From Candidatus Firestoneibacteriota bacterium (lineage in GTDB: Bacteria; Oederibacteriota; D2-FULL-39-29; JBDRBU01): a stretch of 61,259 nt of DNA. How positions within the stretch are numbered: position 1 is the stretch's first letter; each line of letters starts with the position of its first letter. This document shows positions 582 through 57,160 of this stretch, in pieces. Position numbers and translations under genes: made by a program. The notes below the pieces were generated by a model. It saw only the letters and a list, made by a program, of their open reading frames with translations. It made no database searches and had not been told where the DNA came from. The stretch lies in assembly GCA_043822305.1 (NCBI GenBank), contig JBDRBU010000100.1, forward strand, positions 1 through 61,259, read 5' to 3'.

Positions 582-629
582 GGGGTCAGAAACGATTAAA
601 GGAAGTCCCCATGGGACGCCCCCGACTCC
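582..629 (+). repeat. REP family C copy interrupted by a family D hairpin (nested repeat)
   Basis: ggggtcagaaacga + [ttaaaggaagtccccatgggacg] + cccccgactcc. Compare the intact copy ggggtcagagacgaccccgactac at 57138-57160. Confidence 0.6.
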
Positions 630-641
630 ATTTATAAAACA

Positions 642-664
642 CGCAGGCTAAAGCCTGCGACTAC
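642..664 (+). repeat. REP family A copy (cgcaggc-taaa-gcctgcg-ACTAC)
   Basis: 7-bp GC stem hairpin plus CTAC tail. Identical to 12624-12646, near-identical to 40737-40759, and inverted at 12450-12472. Confidence 0.8.
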
Positions 665-676
665 ATAAATACAAAC

Positions 677-2389
677 ATGCGATACAAAAAGCCTTACAAA
701 ACTATAGTTTTATTTTTAATTTTTCTTTTTGGATGTGCATCTATTCAAAAAGTGAATGAAGTAAAGGAAATAAAAGAAGTAAAATGGCCATCATATGAGG
801 CTTTTTTACATTATAGTAAAGGAATACTTTTAAGTAGAAACTGGCTTTTTGATGAAGCCATAGAAGAGTATAAAAAGGCATCGGAATGCGACCCTGATTC
901 GTTAGTCATACAAGAGGTTTTAGCCAAAGAATATTTAAAAATCGGCAAGACAGAAGAAGCAACAAAAACTTATAAAAAGATTGCTGGGGTTAAAGGTGAT
1001 ATTGATCTAAGATTGGATGTCGTTAGATTATACGTTAATCAAGACAGATTGGATGAGGCCATAAAAGAGTGTAACAATATTTTGTCATTATCGCCGAACA
1101 ATATAGACGCATGCTTTTATCTTGGTAATATATACTATAAACAGGGTAAGTACGATGAATCTATTGATTTATATAAAAAAGTAGTATCGGCTGACCCTAA
1201 ATCGGAATCTGCTTATTTTAATTTAGGGTTAGTTTTTAGTAAAAAAGGAAATTATGCTCAGGCCGAAGAATATTACTTAAAATCTATAGAAATTGATCCG
1301 GAATATACTTCACCAATTTATGCTCTTGCCCTTTTATATCAAATTCAAAATAAGCTGGATCTATCTCTAGTTCAATATAACAGATTATTAGAGATAACTC
1401 CAAATGATAGTAGAGTTTATGTTAATCTGGGTTTAATCTATAGTCAACAAAAAAAATATGATAGGGCCATAGAATGTTTTAAAAAAGCAGCTGAATTAGA
1501 ACCATTAGATACAGAGAATCTGTATAGATTATCTTTGATTTATTATCAGGAAAAGAAATTTAAAGAATCAAAAGATCTGATTAATAGATTATTAGAAATA
1601 GAACCAAATAATTATGAGGCTTATCGTCTGAAAGGTATTATTTCCTTAGAAGAGGGGAATTTAAATGATGCAACTTTTTATTTTGAAAAATTGGTTGAAT
1701 TAAACAAAAAAGATGTTTCTGGTTATTTGTATCTTGCATCTATTTGTGGTAAAAAAAAGCAATATGAGGATGTTGTTAAAATATTAGAAAAAGCAGTTTT
1801 AACTTTTACTGATAATAATGAAATTAAACTTTATCTTGGAGAAGCATATTTGGAAGTTAAGAGATACAAAGATGCGGAGAGAGTATACACAGAACTTCTT
1901 AAATCCAATCCGGAAAATGAAAAGGTTTATTATTATCTGGGTGCTCTTTATGAAAGGGAAAGTAAAGTAGAAGAATCTGTTAAATCTTTTAAAAAAGTTA
2001 TTGAGTTAAATCCTAAAAATGCCGATGCGTATAATTATATTGGTTATCTGTACGCTGATAAAAATGTTAATTTAGATGAAGCATTGGAATTAATCAGGAA
2101 GGCACTTGAGTTTGAACCTACCAATGGGGCGTATGTGGATAGTTTAGGGTGGGTATATTTTAGAAAAGGTATGCTTGATGAAGCGCTTAAAGAGTTAGAG
2201 AAGGCCTGCAAATTACTGAAAGATAAAGGAATAGAAGATGCTACGGTATATGAACATCTGGGCGATATTTATATTAAAAAAGGCATGATAGAGAAAGCAA
2301 AAGAGATGTATAATAAGTCGGTTGATTTAAATAAAGAAAACAAAAATGTAAGGGAAAAGATTAATGATATTGAGAAAGTTACTCGTTGA
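677..2389 (+). CDS. TPR-repeat lipoprotein
   Basis: 570 aa. Signal peptide with lipobox LFGC. More than 10 tandem 34-aa TPR-like units (A..Y..A...P.. pattern). Confidence 0.8.
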   Translation: MRYKKPYKTIVLFLIFLFGCASIQKVNEVKEIKEVKWPSYEAFLHYSKGILLSRNWLFDEAIEEYKKASECDPDSLVIQEVLAKEYLKIGKTEEATKTYKKIAGVKGDIDLRLDVVRLYVNQDRLDEAIKECNNILSLSPNNIDACFYLGNIYYKQGKYDESIDLYKKVVSADPKSESAYFNLGLVFSKKGNYAQAEEYYLKSIEIDPEYTSPIYALALLYQIQNKLDLSLVQYNRLLEITPNDSRVYVNLGLIYSQQKKYDRAIECFKKAAELEPLDTENLYRLSLIYYQEKKFKESKDLINRLLEIEPNNYEAYRLKGIISLEEGNLNDATFYFEKLVELNKKDVSGYLYLASICGKKKQYEDVVKILEKAVLTFTDNNEIKLYLGEAYLEVKRYKDAERVYTELLKSNPENEKVYYYLGALYERESKVEESVKSFKKVIELNPKNADAYNYIGYLYADKNVNLDEALELIRKALEFEPTNGAYVDSLGWVYFRKGMLDEALKELEKACKLLKDKGIEDATVYEHLGDIYIKKGMIEKAKEMYNKSVDLNKENKNVREKINDIEKVTR

Positions 2390-2975
2390 AAATTCCGCTC
2401 CACGGAACTCCGTAGGATGGATCTTCACCTTAGGTTGTGTGTTGTTAATAGCAGGTTGTGCTATTAAACCTCGTGGGGAGATAACAGTTTCTTCTCTTAA
2501 ATCAGAAATTTTTATTAATTTTTCGGGCGATAATTATAAATTTAAAAAGAAAGCATTAATAGCTGTTAAGTCCCCAGATAAAATTAGATTTGAAATTAAA
2601 GGATTTTGGAACGAGCCGTTTTTTATATTTGTGTATAATAATAGAAATACTAAGATTTATTTTGTAGGAGAAAATGCTTGTTATGATGGTGAAATTTTTG
2701 AAAAAGATTTTAATCCCGTAGAATTATTTTTTGGTATTAACCTGGAAAATACGGGTATAAAAGTTAATTATTCAAACTATGAAATAATTAGCGGGATAAA
2801 TTTACCGTTAAAAATAGAAGGTGTTTTTAACAATAATAAAATCCAGTTTAAATACATTAACCCACTTCTCAATATAGATATTTCAGATAAAATGTTTGAA
2901 TTTGTTGCACCCGCATCGGCTAAAATAATTTCCAAAGAAGATATGGTTAATATAATAAAGAAATGGTCAAGATAA
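2364..2975 (+). CDS. LolB-like / DUF4292-like outer-membrane lipoprotein (tentative)
   Basis: 203 aa with lipobox LIAGC. Sits directly upstream of ispE, as lolB does in the E. coli lolB-ispE arrangement. No strong motif, so the call rests on context. Confidence 0.4.
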   Translation: MILRKLLVENSAPRNSVGWIFTLGCVLLIAGCAIKPRGEITVSSLKSEIFINFSGDNYKFKKKALIAVKSPDKIRFEIKGFWNEPFFIFVYNNRNTKIYFVGENACYDGEIFEKDFNPVELFFGINLENTGIKVNYSNYEIISGINLPLKIEGVFNNNKIQFKYINPLLNIDISDKMFEFVAPASAKIISKEDMVNIIKKWSR

Positions 2976-3811
2976 TTTTAAAGTCCTTTGCTAAAGTAAA
3001 CTTGTTTTTGGAAGTCCTTAATAAGAGAAATGATGGTTATCATAACATTAGAACTGTTTATCAAACTATAAATTTGGCAGATGATATTTGCCTAGAAAAA
3101 CTCGATAAGAAAATAATTATAAAATGTGATAATGCAAAAGTTCCTTCCGGCAACAAAAACATTGTTTATAAAGCCGTAAGGAAAATTTTAAATTATAAAG
3201 GTATTACCAGCGGTGTAAAGATTGTCATAAGAAAAAGAATTCCAGTTGCTTCTGGTCTGGGAGGAGGCAGTAGTAATGCAGCCGTTGTCTTAAATGGTAT
3301 GAATAAATTATATGGGCTTAATTTATCGTTTCAAGAGCTTTCCAAGATAGCAGAAGCATTGGGTTGCGATGTACCTTTCTTTCTTAAAGGAGGAACAGCA
3401 TTAGGTGAAGGCAGGGGGGAGATACTTACTTATCTTACGCCTATTAAAAATCTTTATTTTGTCTTGGTTAAGGATGGTCATAAGTCATCAACTAAAAAAG
3501 TTTATGAAAATTTTAAAATTAAGTTGACAAAAGGAAATATATTTGATAAAAGAATAAGAAGGTTTTTAAAAGGAGGTGATGTTTTAAAAATTTTACATAA
3601 TGATTTAGAAGATGCTGCCGGTGATATATCTTCTAAAGTTGCTGAGATTAAAAGCAGATTAAGAGGATGTGGTTCATCAGGAAGTTTGATGTCTGGAAGT
3701 GGACCAACAGTTTTTGGCTTAAGCAGCACAAAGCAAGATGCATATAAAATCTATGATAAGATAAAAAATGAATATGACTGGGTGTGTATTTCAAAGTCAA
3801 TAAGGGGGTAA
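2963..3811 (+). CDS. ispE: 4-diphosphocytidyl-2-C-methyl-D-erythritol kinase
   Basis: 282 aa. GHMP kinase motif PVASGLGGGSSNAA. N-terminus KVNLFLEV..R.DGYH is typical of IspE. Confidence 0.9.
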   Translation: MVKIILKSFAKVNLFLEVLNKRNDGYHNIRTVYQTINLADDICLEKLDKKIIIKCDNAKVPSGNKNIVYKAVRKILNYKGITSGVKIVIRKRIPVASGLGGGSSNAAVVLNGMNKLYGLNLSFQELSKIAEALGCDVPFFLKGGTALGEGRGEILTYLTPIKNLYFVLVKDGHKSSTKKVYENFKIKLTKGNIFDKRIRRFLKGGDVLKILHNDLEDAAGDISSKVAEIKSRLRGCGSSGSLMSGSGPTVFGLSSTKQDAYKIYDKIKNEYDWVCISKSIRG

Positions 3812-3817
3812 AATCAG

Positions 3818-4183
3818 ATGGAAATTACAGAGGTTAGAGTACACTTGAGGAATGAAGAAAAACTTAAAGCATATGCTACAATCACTTTTGATAAGTGCTT
3901 TGTCGTTAGAGATTTGAAAATAATTCAGGGTAACAACGGTATGTTTGTGGCTATGCCCAGTAGAAAAAGACCTGATGGAACATATAAAGATATAGCCCAT
4001 CCTTTAGATAATGATACGAGAAAAATGATTGAAAGTAAAATCCTGGAGGCTTATAAAGTAGAATTGGTTAAACTTCAAGATCAAGTTAATAAGGTTGATG
4101 AAGCAACTGTTATTAGGACACAGGATATAAGCGAGAAGTTGTCTGATATCGAAAAATCAATAGAAAATAAAATATCTGGATAG
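3818..4183 (+). CDS. spoVG: septation protein SpoVG with a C-terminal extension
   Basis: MEITEVRVHL..KLKAYATITFD..FVVRDLKII.G..G.FVAMPSRK..DG.YKDIAHP is the SpoVG core. About 35 extra acidic C-terminal residues. Confidence 0.9.
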   Translation: MEITEVRVHLRNEEKLKAYATITFDKCFVVRDLKIIQGNNGMFVAMPSRKRPDGTYKDIAHPLDNDTRKMIESKILEAYKVELVKLQDQVNKVDEATVIRTQDISEKLSDIEKSIENKISG

Positions 4184-4184
4184 A

Positions 4185-5516
4185 TTATCGTCCCATATGA
4201 AATGGGACGCTACTATTCTTTTCTTTAAATAAAATAAATAATAATCCTAAGAAGAGTATGAAATGTCCAATAAACATTCCAGAATAACTTTGTAATTCTT
4301 TGTTTAAACCGGTACAAGTAAATAAGGCCGAGATAACCAAGATATATTTAAGTATTTTTTGATTAGTTTTATCAATACCTTTTGAGAAAATGTAATTTAC
4401 TGAAACATAGTATGCAAATAGCACACTAACATAGTGATTAAGCCAGGAAGATGGTGATATAAATAAAATCAGTAAAAAGACTATAGCAAATTCGAATTTT
4501 AATAGGGTTGGATTCTTTTTAAAACTGTTTGTAAAGGCTAAGGCACATACTGTAAGTAATGAAATTTTTATTATGGTTGAGATGTTCTTAGCTTGATTAA
4601 TTGTTAAAAATGCAGGGTCAATAAAATTATGGAATTTACCAAGTAGTTTATCTGCGTAAGTTATTTTCCCGAAATCAGAGAAATGTCTAACGATGAAACC
4701 ATCTAAAGATTGATTAGAGTGTCCGTAGTATACTGTTTCTCTAATATATATATCATTTTTAAAGAATGGCAAAAACACTTGATGGACAAAGTCTTTTAAA
4801 AATATAAGGTTTTTATCAAGACCATAATAACAGGATGGAATGATTAAGAAGAATAAAATTAAGCCAATAATGGTACCAGGTAATATTTTAAAGTTTCTTT
4901 TATATAGAAAATAAAGTAATAATAATAACGGGGTTACTTTTATTGAAATTGCAAAACTTAAGCATAAACCACTTAAAAAATCGTCCCACGGGGACTTCCT
5001 TCGGTCGTCCTTTTGTATAAAGAAATACAAACTTAAGACGCTAAAGAAGAAAACCAAAATATTGCTTTGGCCTAACCACAGGTTGTCTGAAATGATGACC
5101 AGAGCCACTATGAAAACAGGTATTATAAATTTATTTTCTGAAAAGTTTATATTATTTAGTACATTTATATTGTTTTCTTCTTTATAATTCAGGATTCTTT
5201 TTATTAGTATTACTGTTATGGTTAAAAGGGATATATTAAAAATATCCCAGAGGAGTAAGGCTACTTTACTTGTAAATTGTGCAAAAAAAGACATAACACA
5301 GTAAAAGAAAGGTGGATAAGAGAAAGCTATATATTTATTGTAAAGGTCATCGTTTGCATACAGAATTTTTCTTGTAATCATCCAAAAAGGATAAAAATCA
5401 ACAGAATGTCGGGTTAAGGTGTAGATTAAGATTATTGAAAAGTAAATACCAAAATAAAGTGTACTTTTCTTTTTGAGAAGTTCTTTGAAATCTTTTAGCA
5501 TATATTGATTATACAA
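4185..5516 (-). CDS. GT-C fold membrane glycosyltransferase (DUF2029/GT87-like)
   Basis: 443 aa, more than 10 predicted TM segments, FSYPPFFY motif in the first loop. The only minus-strand gene in the window. Confidence 0.6.
   Translation of the reverse strand: MYNQYMLKDFKELLKKKSTLYFGIYFSIILIYTLTRHSVDFYPFWMITRKILYANDDLYNKYIAFSYPPFFYCVMSFFAQFTSKVALLLWDIFNISLLTITVILIKRILNYKEENNINVLNNINFSENKFIIPVFIVALVIISDNLWLGQSNILVFFFSVLSLYFFIQKDDRRKSPWDDFLSGLCLSFAISIKVTPLLLLLYFLYKRNFKILPGTIIGLILFFLIIPSCYYGLDKNLIFLKDFVHQVFLPFFKNDIYIRETVYYGHSNQSLDGFIVRHFSDFGKITYADKLLGKFHNFIDPAFLTINQAKNISTIIKISLLTVCALAFTNSFKKNPTLLKFEFAIVFLLILFISPSSWLNHYVSVLFAYYVSVNYIFSKGIDKTNQKILKYILVISALFTCTGLNKELQSYSGMFIGHFILFLGLLFILFKEKNSSVPFHMGR
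4189..4213 (+). repeat. REP family B copy (cgtcccat-atgaa-atgggacg-CTAC)
   Basis: 8-bp stem hairpin plus CTAC tail. 24/25 identical to 35960-35984. Overlaps the last codons of the minus-strand GT gene. Confidence 0.8.
4981..5009 (-). repeat. Family D 29-mer inside the GT CDS (translated DDRRKSPWDD)
   Basis: Its reverse complement gacgaccgaaggaagtccccgtgggacga matches the pheT copy near 59531-59560 at 27/29 nt, in the same reading frame. Confidence 0.7.
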
Positions 5517-5529
5517 AAAAATAATTAAC

Positions 5530-6956: not shown

Positions 6957-7006
6957 AAAATGGTTCGCAAGCTCACCAGGCTGAGCGAAATCAGGAGGAG
7001 AACTAT

Positions 7007-7276: not shown

Positions 7277-7316
7277 GAGATTGTCATGGTCGCCTCAGTC
7301 GACCTCGCATGATACA
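7277..7316 (+). repeat. Repeat family F copy
   Basis: gagattgtcatggtcgcctcagtcgacctcgcatgataca aligns with 27998-28036 (gagattgccgcggtcgccttaagcgacctcgccatgaca). Central ggtcg(c)/(g)cgacc hairpin. Confidence 0.65.
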
Positions 7317-11820: not shown

Positions 11821-11853
11821 GTGGTATATGAATCAGGATTATCCTTATGCCCC

Positions 11854-11870
11854 ATAATCGTCGCTGTCCC
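11854..11870 (+). repeat. Repeat family K copy (ataatcgtcgctgtccc)
   Basis: 16/17 identical to 36056-36072. Shares the ctgtccc core with the RAYT inverted repeats. Abuts taatattgaca, as the RAYT left arm does. Confidence 0.55.
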
Positions 11871-11875
11871 TAATA

Positions 11876-11904
11876 TTGACAAACCATAAAAAATGATGTA
11901 TACT
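11876..11904 (+). promoter_or_regulatory. promoter of the hicB-like cassette
   Basis: TTGACA (11876-11881), 17 bp spacer, TATACT (11899-11904). Confidence 0.55.
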
Positions 11905-11945
11905 ACAAATAGTTAATGTTGTAATTATGCAAGGGGAGAAGAAAA

Positions 11946-12155
11946 ATGGGAAAAGAAATAATATTCATAGTCGAGGAATCTCAGGAAGGCGGATATGAGG
12001 CAAGGGCATTAGGATATTCGATATTTACAGAATCTGAAACGATGAATGAATTAAAAGAATCGGTTAAAGATGCCGTAAAATGTCATTTTGAAGAAGCAGA
12101 AACACCAGGTATTATCAGATTACACATGGTAAAAGACGAGGTATTGACAGCGTGA
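11946..12155 (+). CDS. hicB: HicB-like antitoxin (HicB_lk_antitox type)
   Basis: 69 aa. Pattern IIFIVEESQEGGYEARALGYSIFTESETMNELKESVKDAVKCHFEE...P..IRLH is typical of this antitoxin family. Own promoter and RBS. Confidence 0.7.
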   Translation: MGKEIIFIVEESQEGGYEARALGYSIFTESETMNELKESVKDAVKCHFEEAETPGIIRLHMVKDEVLTA

Positions 12156-12284
12156 AGATTCCAAGGGATTTGAGCGCTGATGAACTGATAAAGATTCTTT
12201 GGAACTCTGAATGGTGTTTTGTCTGATATAGCGGTTCATCTTGAAAAAGAAAAACAAGTTTTAATAAAAGAATTATTTGAATAA
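12152..12284 (+). pseudogene. HicA/YcfA-type toxin remnant (internal deletion plus frameshift)
   Basis: The GTG overlapping the hicB stop gives VKIPRDLSADELIKIL, then a stop. The next frame gives GTLNGVLSDIAVHLEKEKQVLIKELFE*. Only the N- and C-terminal ends of a HicA-like toxin remain. Confidence 0.65.
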
Positions 12285-12449
12285 GGGTATTGGTGGTGTC
12301 AAAAGTAATATGAAAGAATTTTTCATAAATACTAATAAATAAAGGCTAAATCTCTTCCATGAGTGGGGAGGGAGCATAGAAAGGGTAAATCTGGAAATAA
12401 TCTAAGCAAAGTAAGAGGTCAATGGTAGTTATTGGTAATCGCATTATTG

Positions 12450-12472
12450 GTAGTCGCAGTCTTTAGCCTGCG
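12450..12472 (-). repeat. REP family A copy, inverted
   Basis: gtagtcgcagtctttagcctgcg is the reverse complement of family A with 1 mismatch. Pairs with 12624-12646. Confidence 0.75.
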
Positions 12473-12623
12473 TTAGTTTTTGTTGTAAACATTGAAATAT
12501 CCATGTATGAAATCAAAGAGAAAAAGCACTGATTATCATTAGATAATTACAGATGAAAAATTTAACAAAGCATATAGCATATATTTTGGAGAACCCGGTG
12601 AGGGAAGGATTGGTAGTAAATAC

Positions 12624-12646
12624 CGCAGGCTAAAGCCTGCGACTAC
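12624..12646 (+). repeat. REP family A copy
   Basis: cgcaggctaaagcctgcgactac, identical to 642-664. Confidence 0.8.
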
Positions 12647-12742
12647 CAAAAAACACTACCAGAAAACATTACCAAAAAACATTATAGAAACATTAATATG
12701 TCAAACTTTTTGACAATACCAAGGTATTTTAGAGGAGAAAAT

Positions 12743-13330: not shown

Positions 13331-13519
13331 AAAAATTAAAAATATATCTTGATACTTCTGTGATAAATTTTTTGTTTGCTGATGATGCGTCAGAAAAAAG
13401 AGATATTACTAATTGTTAAACTGAAAACAAAATGGGGGGTTAATAATATCAATAAGATAGAAGGATATAATGAAATTGAACTTATAAGTCCTGAGGAGGC
13501 GATTGAAAATGAAGATTGA
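13327..13519 (+). pseudogene. PIN-domain (VapC-like) toxin remnant
   Basis: N-terminal MKKLKIYLDTSVINFLFADD.. stops at 13417-13419. Another frame gives ..KWGVNNINKIEGYNEIELISPEEAIENED*, which resembles the C-terminus of the same family. About 100 central codons are missing. Confidence 0.6.
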
Positions 13520-13679
13520 AGAACCAAAAGCAATGGCAGAAATACACGAAATTAGGAAGAATATTTATGAGGAAACAAAAAATATGACCGCCAGAGAAAA
13601 ATTGGAATGGGTTCATAAAGAATCTGAAAAGGCTAAGAATAAATATGGAATCCGGTTGTCAGAAATGGGCAAATATTAA
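13509..13679 (+). CDS. small intact ORF partnered with the PIN remnant (56 aa)
   Basis: MKIEEPKAMAEIHEIRKNIYEETKNMTAREKLEWVHKESEKAKNKYGIRLSEMGKY. GAGGAGG RBS upstream. Overlaps the PIN remnant stop. Below the 60-aa ORF-track cutoff. Confidence 0.45.
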   Translation: MKIEEPKAMAEIHEIRKNIYEETKNMTAREKLEWVHKESEKAKNKYGIRLSEMGKY

Positions 13680-20412: not shown

Positions 20413-21197
20413 TGAAAGACATTTTAAATAAAATAATTGAAAACAAAAAAAAAGAAGTTGCAAAGAGCAAGAAAAGTCTTTGTATCAAAATACTAAAAGA
20501 AAAAGTATATACCTTGCCACCATCTAAATTTAAAAAATCTTTATCTTCTCACTTCTCAATAATCGCAGAAGTTAAAAAAGCATCTCCATCAAAAGGTATA
20601 ATGAGGAAAGATTTTAATCCTGTCCAGATTGCAAAGATTTACGAGAAAGGCAAAGCAGATGCTATTTCTGTATTAACTGATAACAAGTATTTTAAGGGGA
20701 ATTTATCATATTTAAAAAGGATAAAAAATATGGTGTCTGTCCCTATTTTAAGGAAAGATTTTATTATAGATGAATATCAGATATACGAGTCCAGATATTA
20801 TGGTGCAGATGCCGTATTACTTATAGTCTCTATTTTAACAGAAAATAAATTAAGGTATTTTATTAAATTAGCCAAAAAAATAAATATGGATTGTTTGGTT
20901 GAAGTCCATAGTCAGAAGGAAATAAAAACAGCACTTAAATGTAATGCTGATATTATTGGAATTAATAATAGGGATTTAAGAACATTTAAAACGGATTTAA
21001 AAACAACAGAGAGATTAATAAGGTATATGCCGGATAATAAAATAGTTATAAGTGAGAGTGGAATTAAAACAAAAGAGGATATAAAATATTTGAAAAGTTT
21101 GGGTGTGGATGGAGTACTTATTGGTGAAACATTCATGAGAAGTAAAAATATAACAAGTACTTTAAAAAAATTCTCAATAGAAAGGAAAAATATATGA
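20412..21197 (+). CDS. trpC: indole-3-glycerol phosphate synthase
   Basis: 261 aa. E.KKASPSKG, PILRKDFI.D.YQI, VEVH, INNRDL motifs. Confidence 0.95.
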   Translation: MKDILNKIIENKKKEVAKSKKSLCIKILKEKVYTLPPSKFKKSLSSHFSIIAEVKKASPSKGIMRKDFNPVQIAKIYEKGKADAISVLTDNKYFKGNLSYLKRIKNMVSVPILRKDFIIDEYQIYESRYYGADAVLLIVSILTENKLRYFIKLAKKINMDCLVEVHSQKEIKTALKCNADIIGINNRDLRTFKTDLKTTERLIRYMPDNKIVISESGIKTKEDIKYLKSLGVDGVLIGETFMRSKNITSTLKKFSIERKNI

Positions 21198-22012
21198 TTA
21201 AATATGGTCTATGTAGCGAGATATTTAAAGAATGGGAGTGGGAGAAAACCTGTAAATATGTATCAAAAATTGGTTATCATGGAATTGAAATAGCTCCATT
21301 TGTATTTGCAGAGTCAGTTACTCAAATAGACTCTAAAAAGCGGAAAGAAATAAAAGATATATCTAAGAAATATAATTTGGAAATAACTGGATTACATTGG
21401 CTACTTACTAGTCCTAAAGGATTATATATAACTACAATAGATTCTGATTTAAGAGAAAAGACAAAAAATTATTTTTTTGAATTAATAAAGTTTTGTAGTG
21501 ATTTAGGTGGAAGAATAATGGTTATAGGTTCACCCAAGCAAAGAAATATACCAGAAGATATGACATATGAGGAAGCATGGAAAATCTCAAAAGATTTCTT
21601 TAACGATTGCTCTAAGATAGCAAAAAAAGAAAGTGTTTATCTTTGTCTTGAACCTTTACCGATTGATGAGACAAACATATTCACTACAGTTGAAGAGGTT
21701 GTTAAGTTTGTAAAAGAGATAAATCATCCTAATTTTAAAATGATAGTTGATGTGAAGTCAATGTCTGCTGAAGGTAAGCCGATATCTGCTTTGATAAAAT
21801 CCGCAAAAGATTTTGTTTTACATATTCATGCTAATGATTCGAATAGAAGAGGCCCAGGTTTTGGGAATACTGATTTTATACCTATAGCCAAGGCATTAAA
21901 AGACATTAATTACAATGGTTATTTATCAGTAGAAGTTTTTGATTTTACACCTAACCCCGAGACAATTGCTGAAAAAAGTTTAGAATATTTGAAAAGTATA
22001 TGGAAAAAGTAG
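21194..22012 (+). CDS. sugar-phosphate isomerase/epimerase (xylose-isomerase-like TIM barrel)
   Basis: 272 aa. Pattern Y.GIEI, then LEP, then H..D, typical of the AP_endonuc_2 fold. Not a trp gene. Confidence 0.65.
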   Translation: MIKYGLCSEIFKEWEWEKTCKYVSKIGYHGIEIAPFVFAESVTQIDSKKRKEIKDISKKYNLEITGLHWLLTSPKGLYITTIDSDLREKTKNYFFELIKFCSDLGGRIMVIGSPKQRNIPEDMTYEEAWKISKDFFNDCSKIAKKESVYLCLEPLPIDETNIFTTVEEVVKFVKEINHPNFKMIVDVKSMSAEGKPISALIKSAKDFVLHIHANDSNRRGPGFGNTDFIPIAKALKDINYNGYLSVEVFDFTPNPETIAEKSLEYLKSIWKK

Positions 22013-22016
22013 ATAT

Positions 22017-22517
22017 ATGTTTTTAAAAGATACCTATATAAAAATCATTATTATAGTAACAGTTTTTGTTATTTTGATAATGGGCGGTATCCATCTTTAT
22101 CTAAGGAATAACCCAACATTACCTCTTAGTAGCAGGCCTTATTTGATTAAAAAGGTTATTGATGGAGATACGCTAATCATTGAAAATGGTGAGAGAATAA
22201 GACTAATTGGAATTGATGCACCTGAAACGCATCATCCAGTGATTTCAGCACAGAGATTTGGACAGGAATCAGCAGATTTTTTAAAAAAGATGGTAGAAAA
22301 CCATAAATGTATGTTAGAGTATGAACCAGATAGAGTAAGAGATTCTTATGAAAGAATTCTTGCTTATGTGTATGTAAATGGAAATTTAATAAATGCCGAG
22401 ATGATAAAAATGGGATATGCATATGTATACACAAGGTTTCCATTTAAAAAGATGGAAGAATTTATAGTTTTAGAGAAACAAGCAAGAGATAAGAAAATAG
22501 GATTATGGGAAAAATAA
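22017..22517 (+). CDS. membrane-anchored thermonuclease (SNase-like)
   Basis: 166 aa. N-terminal TM helix. V.DGDT..I..G..IRL.GIDAPE and ER.LAYV motifs of staphylococcal-nuclease homologs. Confidence 0.85.
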   Translation: MFLKDTYIKIIIIVTVFVILIMGGIHLYLRNNPTLPLSSRPYLIKKVIDGDTLIIENGERIRLIGIDAPETHHPVISAQRFGQESADFLKKMVENHKCMLEYEPDRVRDSYERILAYVYVNGNLINAEMIKMGYAYVYTRFPFKKMEEFIVLEKQARDKKIGLWEK

Positions 22518-22963
22518 TGGATTTAGATGAGGGAGCGAAACTTAAAAGGTTTATAATAAGAGTAGTGGTTACCACTTTAGCCATACTTATAATTCTATTT
22601 TTTGTTAAGATTTGGTTTTTTAATAATAAAGCTAAAACTCCTGATTTCAAGCAACAGGCACCAATATCTATTTCTCTTAATGATGTTACTAAATATTATG
22701 GTAAATATGTAATAGTAGAAGGAAAGATTACCAAAACATATAATTCTGGAAAAGCATGTTTTCTTAATTTTAATGTAAATTATAGGCGATATTTAACAGC
22801 AGTGATTTTTGCTTCATCTTTTTCGCAATTTCCTCCTAATCCAGAGAATTATTATTTAAATAAAACAGTTAAAGTTGTTGGTACCATAAAAGAGTATCAA
22901 GGAAGTCCCGAGATAATTTTAAATAATAAAGAGCAAATTGAAGAGGGACAGACACCATATTAA
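22505..22963 (+). CDS. membrane-anchored OB-fold-like protein
   Basis: 152 aa. One TM helix, then Y.GK.V.VEGKI....NSGKACFLNF....V.V.G.I.EYQG.PEI, which resembles an OB-fold. Overlaps the SNase stop by 13 nt. Confidence 0.5.
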   Translation: MGKIMDLDEGAKLKRFIIRVVVTTLAILIILFFVKIWFFNNKAKTPDFKQQAPISISLNDVTKYYGKYVIVEGKITKTYNSGKACFLNFNVNYRRYLTAVIFASSFSQFPPNPENYYLNKTVKVVGTIKEYQGSPEIILNNKEQIEEGQTPY

Positions 22964-22965
22964 TA

Positions 22966-22994
22966 TTGACATAAAGATGAAGGGATGATAAAAT
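22966..22994 (+). promoter_or_regulatory. promoter of the RAYT gene (transcript probably leaderless)
   Basis: TTGACA (22966-22971), 17 bp spacer, TGaTAAAAT (-10 at 22989-22994). The ATG lies 6 nt downstream with no SD. Confidence 0.55.
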
Positions 22995-22999
22995 AACAT

Positions 23000-23671
23000 A
23001 TGCCAAGAATAGCGAGAGTAGTAGGAGAAGGATTACCACACCATATAACCCAACGTGGAAATTACAGGCAAAAAGTATTAGAAAAGAGGGAGGATTTTGA
23101 AAAATATTTGTCACTTCTGGAAGAACAAAGCAGAAAATATGAAACCAGGATTATTTCATATTGCATAATGAATAATCATGTGCATTTTATAGCAATACCT
23201 GAAAAATCAGATTCGTTAGCGAACACATTCAAATATGTGCATATGAAGTATTCGCAGTATGTGAATAAGAAAAAAGGAATGTCAGGGCATTTATGGCAGA
23301 GCAGGTTTTTTTCGAGCGTAATTGACAAAGATTATCTATCGGTGGCCATGAGATATGTAGAAAGGAACCCGGTAAGAGCAAAAATGGTAAAGAGAGCCGT
23401 AGAGTGGGAGTGGTCAAGTGCTATCCAACATTGTGGATACAAAAGCAAAAGCATGATGGTTGAAAATATAACAAGTTTAACAGGGATGAGAGAAACAGAG
23501 TGGGAGAAATATCTCGAAGAGAAAGAAGATTCTGAAGTATTGGAAAAGCTAAGGAAAAATACAAGTACAGGACGGCCAATAGGAAATGAGGGATTTGTGG
23601 ATATGCTAGAGAAGAAGTTAAAACGAGTATTAAAGATAAAGCCTGCCGGCAGGCTGTTAAAGAAGAGATAA
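23000..23671 (+). CDS. REP-associated tyrosine transposase (IS200/IS605-like Y1/HUH)
   Basis: 223 aa. HUH in NNHVHFIAIP. Catalytic-Tyr helix AMRYVERNPVRAKMV. N-terminal HH.TQRGN. Layout is typical of RAYT/TnpA-REP. Confidence 0.8.
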   Translation: MPRIARVVGEGLPHHITQRGNYRQKVLEKREDFEKYLSLLEEQSRKYETRIISYCIMNNHVHFIAIPEKSDSLANTFKYVHMKYSQYVNKKKGMSGHLWQSRFFSSVIDKDYLSVAMRYVERNPVRAKMVKRAVEWEWSSAIQHCGYKSKSMMVENITSLTGMRETEWEKYLEEKEDSEVLEKLRKNTSTGRPIGNEGFVDMLEKKLKRVLKIKPAGRLLKKR

Positions 23672-27997: not shown

Positions 27998-28036
27998 GAG
28001 ATTGCCGCGGTCGCCTTAAGCGACCTCGCCATGACA
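27998..28036 (+). repeat. Repeat family F copy
   Basis: gagattgccgcggtcgccttaagcgacctcgccatgaca. Hairpin ggtcgc-cttaa-gcgacc. See 7277-7316. Confidence 0.65.
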
Positions 28037-28084
28037 AATGACAAAGCAATGACAAAATAAAAGTTATTCCAACCAAAATAGTCA

Positions 28085-32347: not shown

Positions 32348-32351
32348 TAAA

Positions 32352-35002: not shown

Positions 35003-35971
35003 ATGATGACTATAGAGTACAAATTAACAAGAGAAGCAATGGGTGAAACACTTGTTAAGTTAGGAAAAATAAATAAAAATATTGTAGTTTTAGATGCAGA
35101 TTTATCAAAATCTACAATGACCAATAAATTTGCAAAAGAATTTCCTGATAGATTTTTTGATATGGGTATAGCCGAACAGGATATGATAACAACCTCAGCC
35201 GGTTTAGCCTTAACAGGAAAAATCCCATTTTGTGCTACATATGGAGTATTTTTACCAGGTAGATGCTGGGATCAGGTAAGAATATCTGTCTGTTATTCAA
35301 ATTTAAATGTAAAATTATGTTGCGCCCATGGTGGTGTATCTGTTGGGGCTGATGGTGCCACTCACCAGGCGTTGGAAGATGTAGCCTTGCTGAGGTGCTT
35401 ACCAAATATGGTAATTATTATGCCTGCGGATGCAATTGAAATGGTAAAATGTGTTGAAGCAGTAGCAAAGTATGTAGGCCCAGTAGCCATAAGATTTGGA
35501 CGAGAAAAAGTTCCAATAATTACTAAGCCAGAGGATGTATTTGAAATTGGCAAGGCAAATCTTATAAGAGAGGGTTCTGATGTAACTATAATTGGTTCAG
35601 GAGGATTAATTCTTTATGAGTGTCTGTTAGCCGCAGAAGAGCTTGCCAAAAAGAAAATATCAGTTAGAATAATAAATATGCATACTATAAAGCCTATAGA
35701 TGAAAGTGCAATTATTAAAGCAGCAAAGGAAACAGGAGCAATCGTTACCGCAGAAGAACATCAGGTTATGGGAGGATTAGGTTCTGCTATAGCCGAAGTA
35801 GTTGTTAAAAATACGACGGTGCCTATGGAGTTTATCGGGATTCAGGATAGATTTGGCGAGTCTGGAACTCCCAGAGAGCTATTTGATGAGTTTGAACTAA
35901 GTGCGAAGTTTATACAGCAAGCGGTGGAAAAAGTATTAAAGAGGAAAAATAGAAATGATCGTCCCATATAA
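35003..35971 (+). CDS. transketolase, C-terminal (pyrimidine-binding) subunit
   Basis: 322 aa. ..FFDMGIAEQ.M...AGLA..G..PF..TY.VF.. pattern. No N-terminal subunit gene is adjacent. Confidence 0.85.
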   Translation: MMTIEYKLTREAMGETLVKLGKINKNIVVLDADLSKSTMTNKFAKEFPDRFFDMGIAEQDMITTSAGLALTGKIPFCATYGVFLPGRCWDQVRISVCYSNLNVKLCCAHGGVSVGADGATHQALEDVALLRCLPNMVIIMPADAIEMVKCVEAVAKYVGPVAIRFGREKVPIITKPEDVFEIGKANLIREGSDVTIIGSGGLILYECLLAAEELAKKKISVRIINMHTIKPIDESAIIKAAKETGAIVTAEEHQVMGGLGSAIAEVVVKNTTVPMEFIGIQDRFGESGTPRELFDEFELSAKFIQQAVEKVLKRKNRNDRPI

Positions 35972-35984
35972 AATGGGACGCTAC
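35960..35984 (+). repeat. REP family B copy
   Basis: cgtcccatataaaatgggacgctac. Supplies the last codons (RPI) and the TAA stop of the transketolase ORF. Confidence 0.8.
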
Positions 35985-40736: not shown

Positions 40737-40759
40737 CGCAGGCTAAATCTTGCGACTAC
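40737..40759 (+). repeat. REP family A copy (degenerate stem)
   Basis: cgcaggctaaatcttgcgactac, 21/23 to consensus. Shares an extended left flank (gtaaatac) with 12616-12646. Confidence 0.7.
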
Positions 40760-43218: not shown

Positions 43219-43240
43219 ATAAGCTGGCTCCATTAGATGA

Positions 43241-43274
43241 CAACCCCCTAACCCCCTTTATTAAGGGGGAATTA
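43241..43274 (+). repeat. Repeat family E copy (caaccccctaa-ccccctttattaaggggg-aatta)
   Basis: C5/G5 7-bp stem hairpin with conserved flanks. Other copies at 54028-54062, 57065-57099 and a rearranged one at 56954-56990. Confidence 0.8.
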
Positions 43275-48562: not shown

Positions 48563-48611
48563 GTCATTTATTTGGTTGATTATTTATATAATTTTTGGTA
48601 TTCTATTATAA

Positions 48612-48686
48612 GGCGGCATAGCCAAGTGGTAAGGCAGCGGTCTGCAAAACCGTTATTCCTCGGTTCAAGTCCGAGTGCCGCCTCCA
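48612..48686 (+). tRNA. tRNA-Cys (GCA), CCA encoded
   Basis: Cloverleaf folded by hand. Acceptor ggcggca/tgccgcc, anticodon loop cuGCAaa, T-arm ctcgg-ttcaagt-ccgag, discriminator U73 (typical for Cys), 3' CCA. Confidence 0.9.
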
Positions 48687-48742
48687 AAAAAGTAAAGAAA
48701 GTAGAAAAAGTGAAAAAAGTAAAAATTTTAAGGAGGATAAAA

Positions 48743-49234
48743 GTGAAAAAAATTGTAATAATTATAGTTTCTTTGTTTATGTTTAATTTTTCATACGGAG
48801 AGATAATAGTTAAAAAAGGAGAATCTGCACCAAATTTTTCATTGTTTCCTTTAAAAGGTAAAAAAATATCTCTTAAGGAATTTAAGGATAAAAAAGTTGT
48901 TTTAATAAATGTGTTTTCAATAACTTGTCTACCCTGTAAAGAAGAATTACCTGGTCTTATTAAAGCAAGTAGTGAATATAAGGAAAATCTTCAAATAATA
49001 GGAATTACTTTGGACAAAAAAAAGGATGAAGTAGAACGATTTGCAAAAGAAAACAAAATAAATTTTCCTGTATGTTTAGATTACACCAAGGAATTTTTAA
49101 ATAAATATTTAAAAGGAAAATTTGATATTCCAATCAGTATTTTTGTTGGATTGGATGGTAATATTACAGAAATTCACCAATATGTAAACGAAAAAACATT
49201 AAGAAAAATTTTAGAAGATTTGATAAAAAAATGA
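48743..49234 (+). CDS. TlpA/redoxin-family thiol-disulfide oxidoreductase (membrane-anchored)
   Basis: CxxC = CLPC in ..VLINVFSITCLPCKEELP... GTG at 48743 after AAGGAGG. The tracked ORF start (48572) runs through the tRNA and is rejected. Confidence 0.75.
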   Translation: MKKIVIIIVSLFMFNFSYGEIIVKKGESAPNFSLFPLKGKKISLKEFKDKKVVLINVFSITCLPCKEELPGLIKASSEYKENLQIIGITLDKKKDEVERFAKENKINFPVCLDYTKEFLNKYLKGKFDIPISIFVGLDGNITEIHQYVNEKTLRKILEDLIKK

Positions 49235-51232: not shown

Positions 51233-51234
51233 GA

Positions 51235-51264: not shown

Positions 51265-51290
51265 TAAGTTAAAAGAGGAGGTGGTTTAAA

Positions 51291-51806: not shown

Positions 51807-51807
51807 A

Positions 51808-52005: not shown

Positions 52006-52019
52006 GTTAAGTTTGTTTG

Positions 52020-52057
52020 TAGTCTGTTCGCCTTGGCGAACAACTATTCCTAATATT
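52020..52057 (+). repeat. Repeat family G copy
   Basis: tagtctgttcgccttggcgaacaactattcctaatatt (hairpin gttcgcc-tt-ggcgaac). Inverted copy at 55975-56011. Confidence 0.75.
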
Positions 52058-52114
52058 ATTTATTCACATTATGGAAAGTCATAATTTGTGATTTGTAACT
52101 AAAGGAGGTTTTAA

Positions 52115-52465: not shown

Positions 52466-54039
52466 TGTCAAAAGATTTGTTTAAATCACAGTCAGGATTA
52501 AGAAGAGATGTTGGTGTCTGGGGCTCCTTTATGTGGGGTTATGCAGATGTAGGAGCTAATGTTTATGTTGCCTTAGGAATTGTTATAGCCGCAGCCCAGG
52601 GAGCAGCCAGTTTAGCCTTTGCTGTTGCTGGATTAGTATACATTTTAATAGGACTGGCCTATACTGAACTTGCTTCTGCTTATCCTATTGCCGGTGGTGG
52701 TCAGTATTTTTCCATGAGAGGGTTAGGTGATATCTGGGGATTCATAAGTGGCTCATCCTTGCTTTTGGATTATACAATTGATATTGCTCTTTTTGCCACT
52801 GCTTCTGCTGGATATATTAACTTTTTCATGCCATATATTTTAGGCCACAGTATTAAAGATTATGTGATTAATATCGGCCCTTTTGCTATAAATTATTTCT
52901 GGTATCTTGAAACTTTAGCCATAATACTTATTCTTGTTTTTATTAATATAAAAGGAGTTAAGGAATCATCTCGTTTAAATGAAATATTTGGAGTTATTGA
53001 GATATTAACTGAATCAGGATTAGTGATACTTGGTTTTGTCTTTGCCTGGAGTCCAGAGAAATTTTTGTATCAGTGGCATACCCAACAGCCAAGTTTAAAT
53101 CAATTTATGTATGGTACATCTCTGGCCATAATATCCTTTATTGGTTTAGAATCTATTTCTCAGGCAGCACAGGAGACTCGAAGGCCGGCAACAATAATAC
53201 CAAGGACATCTATAGCGTTGATTTTTACAGTTTTTCTCACGGCCATATCTTTTTCTACATTAGGATTAGGTGTTTTAGACTGGCAGGTTTTAGCCGAACA
53301 TCAAGCTAACCCTGTGGCAAAATTAGCAGATGCTATTCCATATATAGGAATAATAGCAGGACCTTTTACTGCTGTTATGGGTGCAATCATACTGTTTATA
53401 TCTTCAAATACAGGTGTTATGGGTGCATCTCGTTTAACATTTTGTATGAGTCAGTTTGGTCTAATTAGTAAATGGTTTGATTATGTTCATCCTAAATTTA
53501 AAACACCGGTTAGAACTATACTTGTATTTTCTTTTATTGCAATTGTAGAACTGACAGTTGCTTTTTTAACACCAAAGGCGATAGATACATTAGGTAATTT
53601 ATATGCTTTTGGAGCTACATTAGGATATATATTAGTGTTTTTAGCACTCATTAGATTAAGATACATAGACCCATATTCACCTCGACCATATAAAGTACCT
53701 TTTAATATTAAGGTTAAATATCATGGCCATGAGGTAGAATTTCCGTTGTTTGCTGTCATAGGAACAATTGGAGTAAGTACAATCTTTTTTATGGTTATTT
53801 GGACACATTCTATTGGGAGAATAGCGGGTCCAGCCTGGGTCATTCTATGTTTAATATATTATTTTATATACAGAGCAAAGAATAAACTTCCTTTAGTCGG
53901 AAGTGTTGAAAGGAATTGGGAGAAAGAACAGATAGAAGTTTTAGAATCTGCAGAGGAGTATGATTTGGTTGAGCAATATAAGATTGCCTTGAAAGATAGA
54001 GACAAGAAAGGACAACCACCTAACCTGACAACCCCCTAA
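52465..54039 (+). CDS. APC-superfamily amino acid permease
   Basis: 524 aa with about 12 TM helices. N-terminal GYADVGA..YVALG and ..AY.ELASA.P.AGG.Y pattern. Confidence 0.8.
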   Translation: MSKDLFKSQSGLRRDVGVWGSFMWGYADVGANVYVALGIVIAAAQGAASLAFAVAGLVYILIGLAYTELASAYPIAGGGQYFSMRGLGDIWGFISGSSLLLDYTIDIALFATASAGYINFFMPYILGHSIKDYVINIGPFAINYFWYLETLAIILILVFINIKGVKESSRLNEIFGVIEILTESGLVILGFVFAWSPEKFLYQWHTQQPSLNQFMYGTSLAIISFIGLESISQAAQETRRPATIIPRTSIALIFTVFLTAISFSTLGLGVLDWQVLAEHQANPVAKLADAIPYIGIIAGPFTAVMGAIILFISSNTGVMGASRLTFCMSQFGLISKWFDYVHPKFKTPVRTILVFSFIAIVELTVAFLTPKAIDTLGNLYAFGATLGYILVFLALIRLRYIDPYSPRPYKVPFNIKVKYHGHEVEFPLFAVIGTIGVSTIFFMVIWTHSIGRIAGPAWVILCLIYYFIYRAKNKLPLVGSVERNWEKEQIEVLESAEEYDLVEQYKIALKDRDKKGQPPNLTTP

Positions 54040-54062
54040 CCCCCTTTGTTAAGGGGGAATTA
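54028..54062 (+). repeat. Repeat family E copy overlapping the permease stop codon
   Basis: acaaccccctaaccccctttgttaagggggaatta. The TAA stop (54037-54039) lies inside the repeat. Confidence 0.8.
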
Positions 54063-54075
54063 GAAGGAATTAAAA

Positions 54076-54820: not shown

Positions 54821-54859
54821 GTAAAGTAAATAAAGTAAATACAGAGTGAGGATTATTTT

Positions 54860-55276: not shown

Positions 55277-55304
55277 TATGTTAATAGAAAAAGGTGAGTG
55301 AGAT

Positions 55305-55955
55305 ATGTATATTATAATTGTAGGTGGTGGTAAAATAGGGTATCATTTAGCCCGTTCATTGCTTTCAAAAGGGCACGAGATATTAATAGTGGAAAAGGAA
55401 AGGTCTCGTTTTCTTGAACTTTCATCAGAATTTGGAGAGAATGTGGTTCTGGGAGATGGGGCAGACTCTAAAATTCTTAAAGAAATAGGATGCAATAGAG
55501 CAGATGTATTAGTAGCCGTAACAGGTGAAGATGAGGATAATTTAGTTATATGTCAGATGGCGAAAATTCTGTATATGACTCCAAAGATAATTGCCAGGGT
55601 TAATAATCCCGAGAACGAGGAAATATTAACAATATTAGGTGTTGATGTGGCCATAAGTGTAACCCGAATAATAAATAATATTATAACTAAAACAGTTGAT
55701 AAAAGTATTCTTTTACCCTTGCTTCCGATTAAAGAAGGTAAAGTAGAGATAGTTCAGACTGAAATTTCATCAAGTTCTAAAATAATTGGTAAGCCAATAA
55801 TGAAAATTAATTTACCAAAGGATTGTATTATAATTTGTGTTATCAGGGGAGATAATGTAATATTCCCAAAGGGTGAGACAATACTCCAGGAGGGAGATAC
55901 AATCATTGCTATTGTCTCGCGTGAATATGAAAAGGAATTAAGAGACATTTTATGA
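55305..55955 (+). CDS. trkA: TrkA/KtrA-type K+ transport regulatory protein (RCK N + C)
   Basis: 216 aa. MYIIIVGGGKIGYHLA glycine motif. C-terminal TrkA-C-like ..L.EGD.I..... Confidence 0.8.
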   Translation: MYIIIVGGGKIGYHLARSLLSKGHEILIVEKERSRFLELSSEFGENVVLGDGADSKILKEIGCNRADVLVAVTGEDEDNLVICQMAKILYMTPKIIARVNNPENEEILTILGVDVAISVTRIINNIITKTVDKSILLPLLPIKEGKVEIVQTEISSSSKIIGKPIMKINLPKDCIIICVIRGDNVIFPKGETILQEGDTIIAIVSREYEKELRDIL

Positions 55956-55974
55956 CTTTCCATAATGTAAATAA

Positions 55975-56011
55975 AATATTAGGAATAGTTGTTCGGCAAA
56001 AGAACAGACTA
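55975..56011 (-). repeat. Repeat family G copy, inverted, stem decayed
   Basis: aatattaggaatagttgttcggcaaaagaacagacta is the reverse complement of 52020-52057 with changes confined to the hairpin centre. Its last base is the A of the next gene's ATG. Confidence 0.7.
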
Positions 56012-56847: not shown

Positions 56848-56867
56848 AAACAAAGACATTCTGCCTA

Positions 56868-56896
56868 TTGACAAAAATTGCAATATATGATATAAT
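56868..56896 (+). promoter_or_regulatory. consensus promoter heading a ~310-nt leader before yqzL-like/pheST
   Basis: TTGACA (56868-56873), 17 bp spacer, TGaTATAAT (-10 at 56891-56896). Confidence 0.65.
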
Positions 56897-56953
56897 TATA
56901 TATTATATGTAATGGTAAATAGTCAGTAAAAGCCGTGAGGATTATATTCCCAT

Positions 56954-56990
56954 ATTCCCCCTTTGTTAAGGGGGATCAAGGGGGTTGTTG
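56954..56990 (+). repeat. Repeat family E copy with its flank transposed to the 3' side
   Basis: att-ccccctttgttaaggggg-atcaagggggttgttg. Same hairpin and loop orientation as other copies, but the aaccccc flank appears inverted on the right. Confidence 0.7.
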
Positions 56991-57064
56991 TTATGAATAT
57001 CTATGACAATACGATATGGAATGGTAACGATTATTAGAACTCATAAAATTTAAGCGTTAAAAGA

Positions 57065-57099
57065 ACAACCCCCTAACCCCCTTTATTAAGGGGGAATTA
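57065..57099 (+). repeat. Repeat family E copy
   Basis: acaaccccctaaccccctttattaagggggaatta. Its left flank is an 11-nt perfect inverted repeat of 56979-56989. Confidence 0.8.
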
Positions 57100-57133
57100 A
57101 AAATTAGAGGGCTTTCACTGAATATTGGAATAT

Positions 57134-57160
57134 GTCGGGGTCAGAGACGACCCCGACTAC
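57134..57160 (+). repeat. REP family C, intact copy
   Basis: gtcggggtc-agagac-gaccccgac-TAC. 9-bp perfect stem with CTAC tail. Confidence 0.75.

Follow-up and report, generated by a model that had tools for sequence, protein, structure and literature searches.

What are the short GC-rich hairpins that are scattered along an otherwise AT-rich stretch of bacterial chromosome, and why do they carry the same four bases at the foot of the stem? The question is raised by contig JBDRBU010000100.1 of a Candidatus Firestoneibacteriota bacterium, a chromosomal contig of 61,259 nt (31 % G+C, strong positive GC skew), the whole of which is referred to here as the window. Three families of hairpins in the window, A, B and C, are followed by CTAC, or preceded by GTAG when read on the other strand. 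The best explanation, to which we give a probability of roughly 0.8, is that all three are GTAG-tagged repetitive extragenic palindromes (REPs), that a clade of REP-associated tyrosine transposases (RAYTs, or RayT) of about 161 aa, a relic of which lies at 12450–12646, has family A as its cognate REP, and that B and C belong to the same class by their architecture.

The families were searched for with patterns allowing up to three mismatches, with 100 dinucleotide-preserving shuffles as controls. Every hairpin sequence quoted in a preliminary description of this DNA was found in place, amounting to four copies of A, two of B and two of C, all intergenic or at gene ends (Table 1); shuffled sequence gave no match to any of the three patterns (for family A, in 100 shuffles). 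A1 and A2 are identical across 23 nt, and B1 and B2 differ in the loop alone. Folded as single-stranded DNA on the GTAG strand, A1, A2, B1, B2 and C1 are stable (−8.5 to −11.3 kcal/mol, with z-scores against shuffles of −4.6 to −6.2); the stems are broken in A3 (z −0.2) and in the inverted A copy (z −2.1), and the C copy at 582–629 folds no better than shuffles. All three families carry the tag where the stem begins on its 5′ side. It is unpaired there in the centroid structures of A and B (spacing 1 nt and 0 nt respectively), and in that of C, with an overlap of 1 nt, its last G is the first base of the stem.

The CTAC tail common to the three families exceeds chance. It follows, as (A)CTAC, directly upon five of the nine perfect GC-rich hairpins in the window with a stem of at least 7 bp, where the chance of finding CTAC at one of three offsets is about 0.005, as estimated from the base composition of the window. 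When all 256 tetramers were scanned, GTAG was found to tag eight GC-rich hairpins, where a tetramer tags 1.5 on average, and the only tetramers scoring above it are AT-only ones, which are common in this genome. In the disrupted C copy a stretch of some 24 nt that belongs to a different repeat, family F, parts the two arms (GGGGTC ... CCCCGAC), and the tail reads TCC instead of TAC; the only intact C copy in the window is that at 57134–57160. The comparison of a hairpin plus CTAC with REPs agrees with GTAG-tagged REPs as set out in PMC3733652 and PMC8266576, and the literature likewise supports GTAG next to the stem as the recognition and cleavage determinant of TnpA-REP (PMC8266576, PMC3479197).

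Family A is tied to a transposase by the two copies between hisD and hisB, which face each other 151 nt apart. A profile was built from 120 homologues of an intact RayT (that of locus L086, described below) and run on the six-frame translation of the window, and it matches the DNA between these two hairpins in two pieces that stand in the correct order. The C-terminal piece (E=1.8e-5, profile positions 117–139) includes the motif NLTKHIAYILENPVREGLVVNTAG* and is in a different frame from the N-terminal piece, a weak match (9.2 bits, profile positions 2–23) of about 18 codons reading MYEIKEKKH*LSLDNYR*. Identity of the remnant to members of the RayT family reaches 14/24 residues, and its TAA stop falls in the loop of A2. 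Because the remnant matches the RayT profile, and because RayT relatives carry the same hairpin on both sides, we read 12450–12646 as a decayed REPtron, that is, a RAYT lying between its REP and an inverted REP, which has lost roughly codons 19–115 and about 22 C-terminal codons. In the window such an arrangement was found for family A only, and there as a pseudogene.

Table 1. Positions of the tagged hairpins and of the two RAYT-related features in the window
Feature	Position	Strand	Description
REP family A, copy A1	642..664	-	GTAG-T-CGCAGGC-TTTA-GCCTGCG; stem perfect, pattern exact
REP family A, 5′ REP of decayed REPtron	12450..12472	+	GTAGTCGCAGTCTTTAGCCTGCG; inverted copy, 1 stem mismatch
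Internally deleted RAYT pseudogene	12491..12633	+	RayT profile matches, C-terminal and N-terminal pieces
REP family A, copy A2	12624..12646	-	Inverted REP, 3′ end of decayed REPtron; exact, perfect stem
REP family A, decayed copy A3	40737..40759	-	Between aspS and DUF6588 gene; 2 stem mismatches
REP family B, copy B1	4189..4213	-	GTAG-CGTCCCAT-TTCAT-ATGGGACG; pattern exact
REP family B, copy B2	35960..35984	-	1 mismatch, in loop
REP family C, intact copy C1	57134..57160	-	GTA-GTCGGGGTC-GTCTCT-GACCCCGAC; upstream of pheS
REP family C, disrupted copy	582..629	-	Arms split by family-F element; tail mutated
Y1 HUH transposase-like gene, intact, 223 aa	23000..23671	+	Pfam Y1_Tnp 5.8e-16

What an undamaged family-A REPtron looks like can be seen in other genomes. 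A scan of species-representative genomes with the 18-mer CGCAGGCTAAAGCCTGCG of hairpin A yielded, among others, locus L086 of a Desulfobacca metagenome-assembled genome (MAG), which has an intact RayT gene of 162 aa with GTAGCCGCAGGCTTTAGCCTGCG upstream and CGCAGGCTGAAGCCTGCGGCTAC downstream. Its product has 861 homologues of about 161 aa that match Pfam Y1_Tnp, many of them named 'REP element-mobilizing transposase RayT' by JGI, and it scores 82.0 on the NCBIfam model NF047646, above the cut-off of 80. Hairpin A stands on both sides of the intact RayT gene at all four loci inspected (L086 and, on long contigs, L123, L124 and L125/L126). The flanks at the first three are 5′ GTAGCCGCAGGCTT(T/C)AGCCTGCG and 3′ CGCAGGCT(A/G)AAGCCTGCGGCTAC, i.e. 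the layout of a REP and an inverted REP; at L125/L126 both hairpins point the same way, reading CTAC, and the L125 RayT has its stop codon in the REP loop, as the window relic does. The family-A clade is characterized by a length of about 161 aa and the motifs DHQH, WQ and YILDNP, and these genes and flanks together point to family A as its cognate REP. The preliminary description had proposed to test whether each family flanks a RAYT; A does so, at the window relic and the four other MAG loci, and for B and C no partner was seen.

The 18-mer with NCTAC after it was found at no fewer than 119 loci, in MAGs whose labels span 15 or more phyla (these labels are taken from record titles, and MAG binning can err). 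By label the hosts include Desulfobacterota/Deltaproteobacteria, Nitrospirota, Acidobacteriota, Planctomycetota, Verrucomicrobiota, Ignavibacteria, Chloroflexota, Omnitrophota, Aerophobetes, Cloacimonadota, Firestonebacteria, Armatimonadota, Spirochaetota, Bacillota, Thermodesulfobacteriota and others. The G+C content of the loci ranges from 30 to 71 %, and the variation of both this value and the flanking sequence from locus to locus argues that the diversity of hosts is real. Among the matches listed at these loci (at least 119), NCTAC follows 115 of the 142 copies of the 18-mer, as GCTAC (92), ACTAC (12) or CCTAC (11). Neighbouring variant hairpins keep GTAG-N-CGCA...TGCG and a loop that reads TTTA or TTCA. 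The three pairs at the centre of the stem covary (GGC, ACC, GAC, AGC, AAC), and 39 of 96 variant stems with compensatory changes at the same loci carry GTAG. Inverted doublets of hairpin A are also present in other genomes. Because the tag, the CGCA/TGCG base of the stem and the TTTA loop stay fixed in hairpin A while the middle of the stem covaries, we infer that the RayT enzyme reads tag, stem base and loop.

We note that the tag region of A2 is reiterated directly after its CTAC tail, at 12642–12690, with a period of 13 nt (ACTACCAAAAAAC, ACTACCAGAAAAC, ATTACCAAAAAAC). Tandem repeats lie beside the tag in 6 of 140 hairpin-A copies (L032, L037 and L039 are further examples) and in none on the opposite side; such short repeats might arise incidentally when the DNA is cut, or a strand transferred, close to the tag.

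Whether the repeats were acquired or belong to their sites was examined by comparison with two syntenic relatives, L120/L121 (13.7 kb) and L130 (20 kb read of a 68.6-kb contig), over window positions of about 680 to 22000, i.e. the first third. Both have 29 % G+C, with GT87 82 % and hisD 73 % identical to those of the window; among matches listed with identity, the next homologue of hisD is 64 % identical and the remainder are at about 53 % or lower. The window itself is a housekeeping region with nearly all genes on the plus strand, comprising hupA-like HU, ispE, spoVG, rho, rpmE, prfA, aroA, the his and trp operons, dnaE, purD, hisS, aspS, infC-rpmI-rplT and pheST. In the region compared, none of the motifs A, B, C, D and F occurs in L120 or L130, whose genes are closely spaced: the relative has 24 nt between hisD and hisB where the window has 877 nt, 27 nt against 90 nt between rpmE and prfA, and 18 nt against 50 nt between rho and rpmE. 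The spoVG/GT87 site of B1 is occupied in the relative by an ordinary hairpin, AAAGCCCACC...GGTGGGCTTT, and B1 encodes the last nine residues of the minus-strand GT87 (SSVPFHMGR*), replacing the C-terminus found in the relative. Similarly, the gene for the transketolase C-terminal subunit (35003–35971) has its stop codon in the loop of B2. Since the nearest available relative lacks the repeats at the corresponding sites, we read A, B and C as insertions, and they appear to behave as such and not as conserved functional sites; the earlier suggestion that they are mobile rather than fixed holds, the positions of the copies not being conserved.

The sequence of events would then be as follows. A RAYT (TnpA-REP, an HUH-Y1 enzyme) would bind the folded single strand and, by analogy with characterized enzymes, would use GTAG and the hairpin to place its cut before copying or moving the element. 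A family-A REPtron, now dead, would have arrived between hisD and hisB. Copies of A, B and C would then have come to lie in spacers between genes and at the 3′ ends of genes, two of them rewriting a C-terminus (GT87) or supplying a stop codon (transketolase). Annotators should expect such repeats, because gene ends like these two are created or rewritten by them and assemblies are broken.

The his operon carries extra DNA in two spacers, 11821–12697 (hisD–hisB) and 13331–13644 (hisB–hisH), which measure 24 and 26 nt in the relative. The decayed REPtron sits within the first of these, together with a HicA-like fragment and a 69-aa open reading frame (ORF) that has no Pfam or NCBIfam match and that resembles a HicB-type antitoxin. 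The hisB–hisH spacer contains a small ORF resembling an antitoxin and an N-terminal fragment of PIN/VapC type.

Elements of this kind have been known for some time. Di Nocera et al. described GTAG-tagged REPs in 2013, and their paper (PMC3733652) presents a super-family of stem-loops with GTAG at one end, like those of the window, with several families per genome, mostly downstream of coding regions with some intragenic copies, and in several phyla. Subsequent work clarified how GTAG and the hairpin govern recognition and the site of cleavage (PMC3479197, PMC8266576), and the RAYTs have been divided into published groups whose distribution is patchy and in part horizontal (PMC5581495, PMC6006769). 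Because the GTAG REPs, their families and the role of RAYTs are already in the literature, A, B and C are a further case of a known element class and not a new system. The preliminary description was right that several families are present, and had presented a multi-family REP system as uncharacterized in this lineage; the presence of several GTAG families in one genome and the occurrence of GTAG REPs beyond Proteobacteria are both reported in PMC3733652. The exact A, B and C stems were not found in its main text, and the string GTAGCCGCAGGC gave a sole match in the papers searched, in an unrelated DNAzyme biosensor study. No description was found of the near-invariance of hairpin A with its RayT in so many uncultured phyla, or of the decayed REPtron that this lineage carries.

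The closest of the known systems are the REPtrons with short perfect REPs (TnpA-REP group 3 / subclass 2.5) of Pseudomonas, Stenotrophomonas and Marinomonas Mb, in which, as in family A, a perfect GC-rich palindrome follows GTAG (PMC8266576, PMC6006769). They share with the family-A clade a RAYT of about 150–160 aa, the motifs DHxH, WQ and YI..NP, and the bracketing of the gene by a REP and an inverted REP, and we would place the clade in subclass 2.5 from its motifs rather than from a tree. The window differs from them in that its RAYT is an internally deleted remnant and REPINs (inverted REP doublets) are absent, and the hosts here, instead of being Xanthomonads or Pseudomonads, comprise a lineage of 31 % G+C along with many uncultured phyla. 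The REPs of E. coli and their TnpA-REP (group 2, 4er8) resemble the window elements in that GTAG and a hairpin are recognized as single-stranded DNA by an HUH-Y1 enzyme, but their palindromes are longer and imperfect, need a bulge and are arranged in arrays (bacterial interspersed mosaic elements, BIMEs), whereas the window hairpins are short, perfect and single. The window extends the range of GTAG-tagged REPs and of a RayT clade to a deep, AT-rich and barely sampled lineage. It also offers a REPtron in decay, with the transposase gutted and the REPs surviving as orphans, which bears on the persistence or fossilization of REPs after loss of the enzyme; and one REP found with its RayT in many phyla is a natural data set for what the enzyme reads.

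For family B there is additional evidence from metagenomes. The B pattern occurs in three contigs of a metagenome scan, all with 40–42 % G+C and none of the window's lineage, where it forms half of inverted doublets of the form GTAG/GTAA-CGTCCCAT...ATGGGACG-NN-CGCCCTAT...ATAGGGCG-TTAC. The partner stem differs from B by compensatory changes, and the GTAG/GTAA tags face outward. Because these doublets are REPIN-like they support B as a REP. Family C was not found outside the window, and the B, C and F patterns had no match in viral contigs. By analogy, it is architecture alone that would assign B and C to the REP/RAYT mechanism.

A number of observations weigh against identifying the three families as RAYT-processed REPs. 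The RAYT remnant, taken alone, has no meaningful match in Pfam or among solved structures, and the RAYT of family A is dead at this locus. No RAYT lies beside B or C in the window, and the RayT profile found none in the three metagenome loci with B. The only intact Y1 gene of the window, at 23000–23671, fits TnpA-Y1 subclass 2.1 / Bertels group 1 as judged by motifs and length, and its flanks contain no GTAG hairpin or REP. Copies are few, at 4, 2 and 2 per family in 61 kb, and the window has no inverted doublets or arrays of the REPIN or BIME type except for the REPtron pair 151 nt apart. Finally, GTAG is on the minus strand in seven of the eight A, B and C copies, which by GC skew is the leading-strand template, whereas analogy with IS608 would put the active strand on the lagging-strand template. 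The minus strand is also the template strand for transcription, and the sample is too small for a conclusion. As a protein query, the remnant found no protein with three 5-residue words in common.

The gene at 23000–23671 had been taken as the RAYT that accompanies the hairpins. It is found by the 120-RayT profile (E=8.8e-13), its best match among solved structures is E. coli TnpAREP 4er8 (E=8e-4), and it contains the motifs NHVH (HUH), WQ and YVERNP (Y---NP) and a WSS tail; it scores 71.2 bits on NF047646 REP_Tyr_transpos, where the cut-off is 80. Its family has 433 cluster representatives at E<=1e-30 and no match in viral contigs, and its nearest homologue (48 % identity) lies among housekeeping genes with no GTAG hairpins beside it. 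Members of subclass 2.1 / Bertels RAYT group 1 ('TIRYT'-like) likewise have no REPs next to the gene (PMC6006769); the likeness extends to the motifs, the length of 223 aa and the single occurrence in the window, although no terminal inverted repeats are seen around the window gene and it sits in the trp operon. Because it lacks flanking REPs and has subclass 2.1 motifs, this gene is a poor RAYT candidate and is probably not the partner of families A–C. The gene follows trpC and genes for an AP-endonuclease-2 family protein, a staphylococcal-type nuclease and an OB-fold protein, and precedes trpF; these four genes (21194–23671) split the trp operon between trpC and trpF. The trp region of the relative keeps the AP-endonuclease-2 family gene and then has a Macro-domain gene.

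This bears on the claim that the system is active or was so recently, in which case a working RAYT, either the 223-aa protein acting in trans or another encoded elsewhere in the genome, would be moving A, B and C today. The identity of A1 and A2 over 23 nt and the restriction of B1/B2 differences to the loop would fit this, as would the intact HUH and Y---NP motifs of the 223-aa protein; the F element nested in the C copy at 582–629, together with a relative that lacks the elements, points to insertions after the lineages split. However, neither the 223-aa gene nor its 48 % homologue has flanking REPs, the subclass that its motifs fit is reported without them (PMC6006769), the family-A RAYT is a wreck, the stem has decayed in two of the four copies of A, and elements as short as these cannot be dated. 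Present activity is less likely than not, and the sequence does not show it, the RAYT that matches family A being dead at this locus.

A role in RNA is a less probable alternative still, and we consider it improbable. The hairpins would then be inter-cistronic stabilizers, processing sites or terminators, with CUAC read by an RNA-binding factor and the likeness to REPs convergent. Seven of the eight copies are indeed oriented alike with respect to transcription, every copy sits between cistrons or at the 3′ end of a gene, B1 occupies the place of the relative's ordinary hairpin between convergent genes, and REPs elsewhere affect mRNA stability and termination (PMC6006769). Against this, hairpin A flanks RayT genes in inverted orientation, the elements are absent at orthologous sites in relatives, and in other genomes hairpin A is not favoured in its CUAC form in transcripts, with about 39 copies following a same-strand gene and 66 standing at the 3′ end of one on the opposite strand (142 copies, by a rough ORF count that is noisy in GC-rich loci). 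No T-run follows A, C or B2, and canonical terminators were rejected on this ground, B1 possibly excepted.

The hairpins also share with IS200/IS605 elements (IS608, ISDra2) a 5′ guide tetranucleotide, and the enzymes concerned are alike in their Y1 catalytic core and single-strand chemistry, but no complete element of this type is seen and the window hairpins stand alone. That they are ends or remnants of IS200/IS605-type or other miniature transposons, with CTAC as a target-site motif, is highly improbable despite the subterminal hairpins and related Y1 enzymes of that group (PMC8266576), since the copies are single hairpins of 23–27 nt without paired ends or a transposase between them (the pair at the RAYT remnant excepted), the intact relatives are laid out as REPtrons, with RayT between a REP and an inverted REP, and the proteins score far better on the REP-transposase model than on that of IS200.

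A broader proposition can be made, which we hold tentatively and at less than even odds: hairpin A and the RayT of about 161 aa would be a single REPtron lineage whose 23-nt REP is near-invariant in MAGs with labels of 15 or more phyla. Hairpin A would then be among the most widely spread REP families, either because whole REPtrons were passed on horizontally more than once or because protein and DNA recognize each other by an unusually rigid code. The window would record one cycle of this lineage, from arrival in the his operon through spread of the REP to decay of the transposase, and hairpin A would be just one among seven or more families of GC-rich repeats to have entered this AT-rich lineage, which is poorly sampled.

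At least four further families of GC-rich repeats in the window have no GTAG tag. Family F is a repeat of about 38 nt that is not a strong hairpin, with copies at 4972–5009 (+), 59531–59568 (−) and 592–618 (−), the last nested inside the disrupted C hairpin. The first two lie in frame, and in the same orientation to the coding strand, in two unrelated genes, GT87 and PheT, where they encode DD(R/Q)RKSPW(D/E)DF; the element adds eight residues to GT87 relative to that of the relative, and gives PheT extra residues when compared with solved PheT proteins. Family F resembles the in-frame palindromic elements of Rickettsia. Family D (TGACAACCCCC-TAA-CCCCCTT-TATT-AAGGGGG-AATTA) is present at 43238–43274, 54026–54062 and 57063–57099, these copies being 95–100 % identical and at gene 3′ ends, with a variant at 56942–56978. 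Its architecture of a C-run, T-N-A and a C-rich hairpin is also found in unrelated MAG loci (L007, L009, L017, L038, L066 and L107), and family D appears to be another widespread repeat. Family E, GAGATTG..GGTCGCC-(loop)-CGACCTCGC.ATGA, occurs at 7277–7315 in the rpmE–prfA spacer and at 27998–28037 upstream of dnaE.

A repeat of about 70 nt is present in inverted copies 3.9 kb apart, 52019–52089 (+) and 55945–56010 (−), which bracket rplT, an amino-acid permease gene, a Usp gene and two TrkA genes. Because the left copy starts with a GTAG-tagged hairpin (GTAG-TCT-GTTCGC-CTTG-GCGAAC), the repeat may be a fourth GTAG family, or else a miniature transposon. GTTCGC, which is part of this hairpin at 52026, is also present in a GC-rich interrupted hairpin, GGTTCGCAAGCTCACCAGGCTGAGCGAAATC, at 6961–6991 between rho and rpmE, where the spacer of the relative is 18 nt. 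Directly after dnaE, 31568–33209 encodes a DUF6996/DUF6997 protein and an N6/N4 DNA methylase, which may be a solitary methylase or the remnant of a restriction-modification module. An Rfam search of the window reported tRNA as the sole RNA family, and the hairpins are accordingly not taken for known RNA elements. The tRNA-Cys gene (48612–48686) lies inside a mechanically called ORF of 220 aa (48572–49234), and since the AhpC/TSA domain begins at residue 83, the start of this peroxiredoxin is placed downstream of the tRNA.

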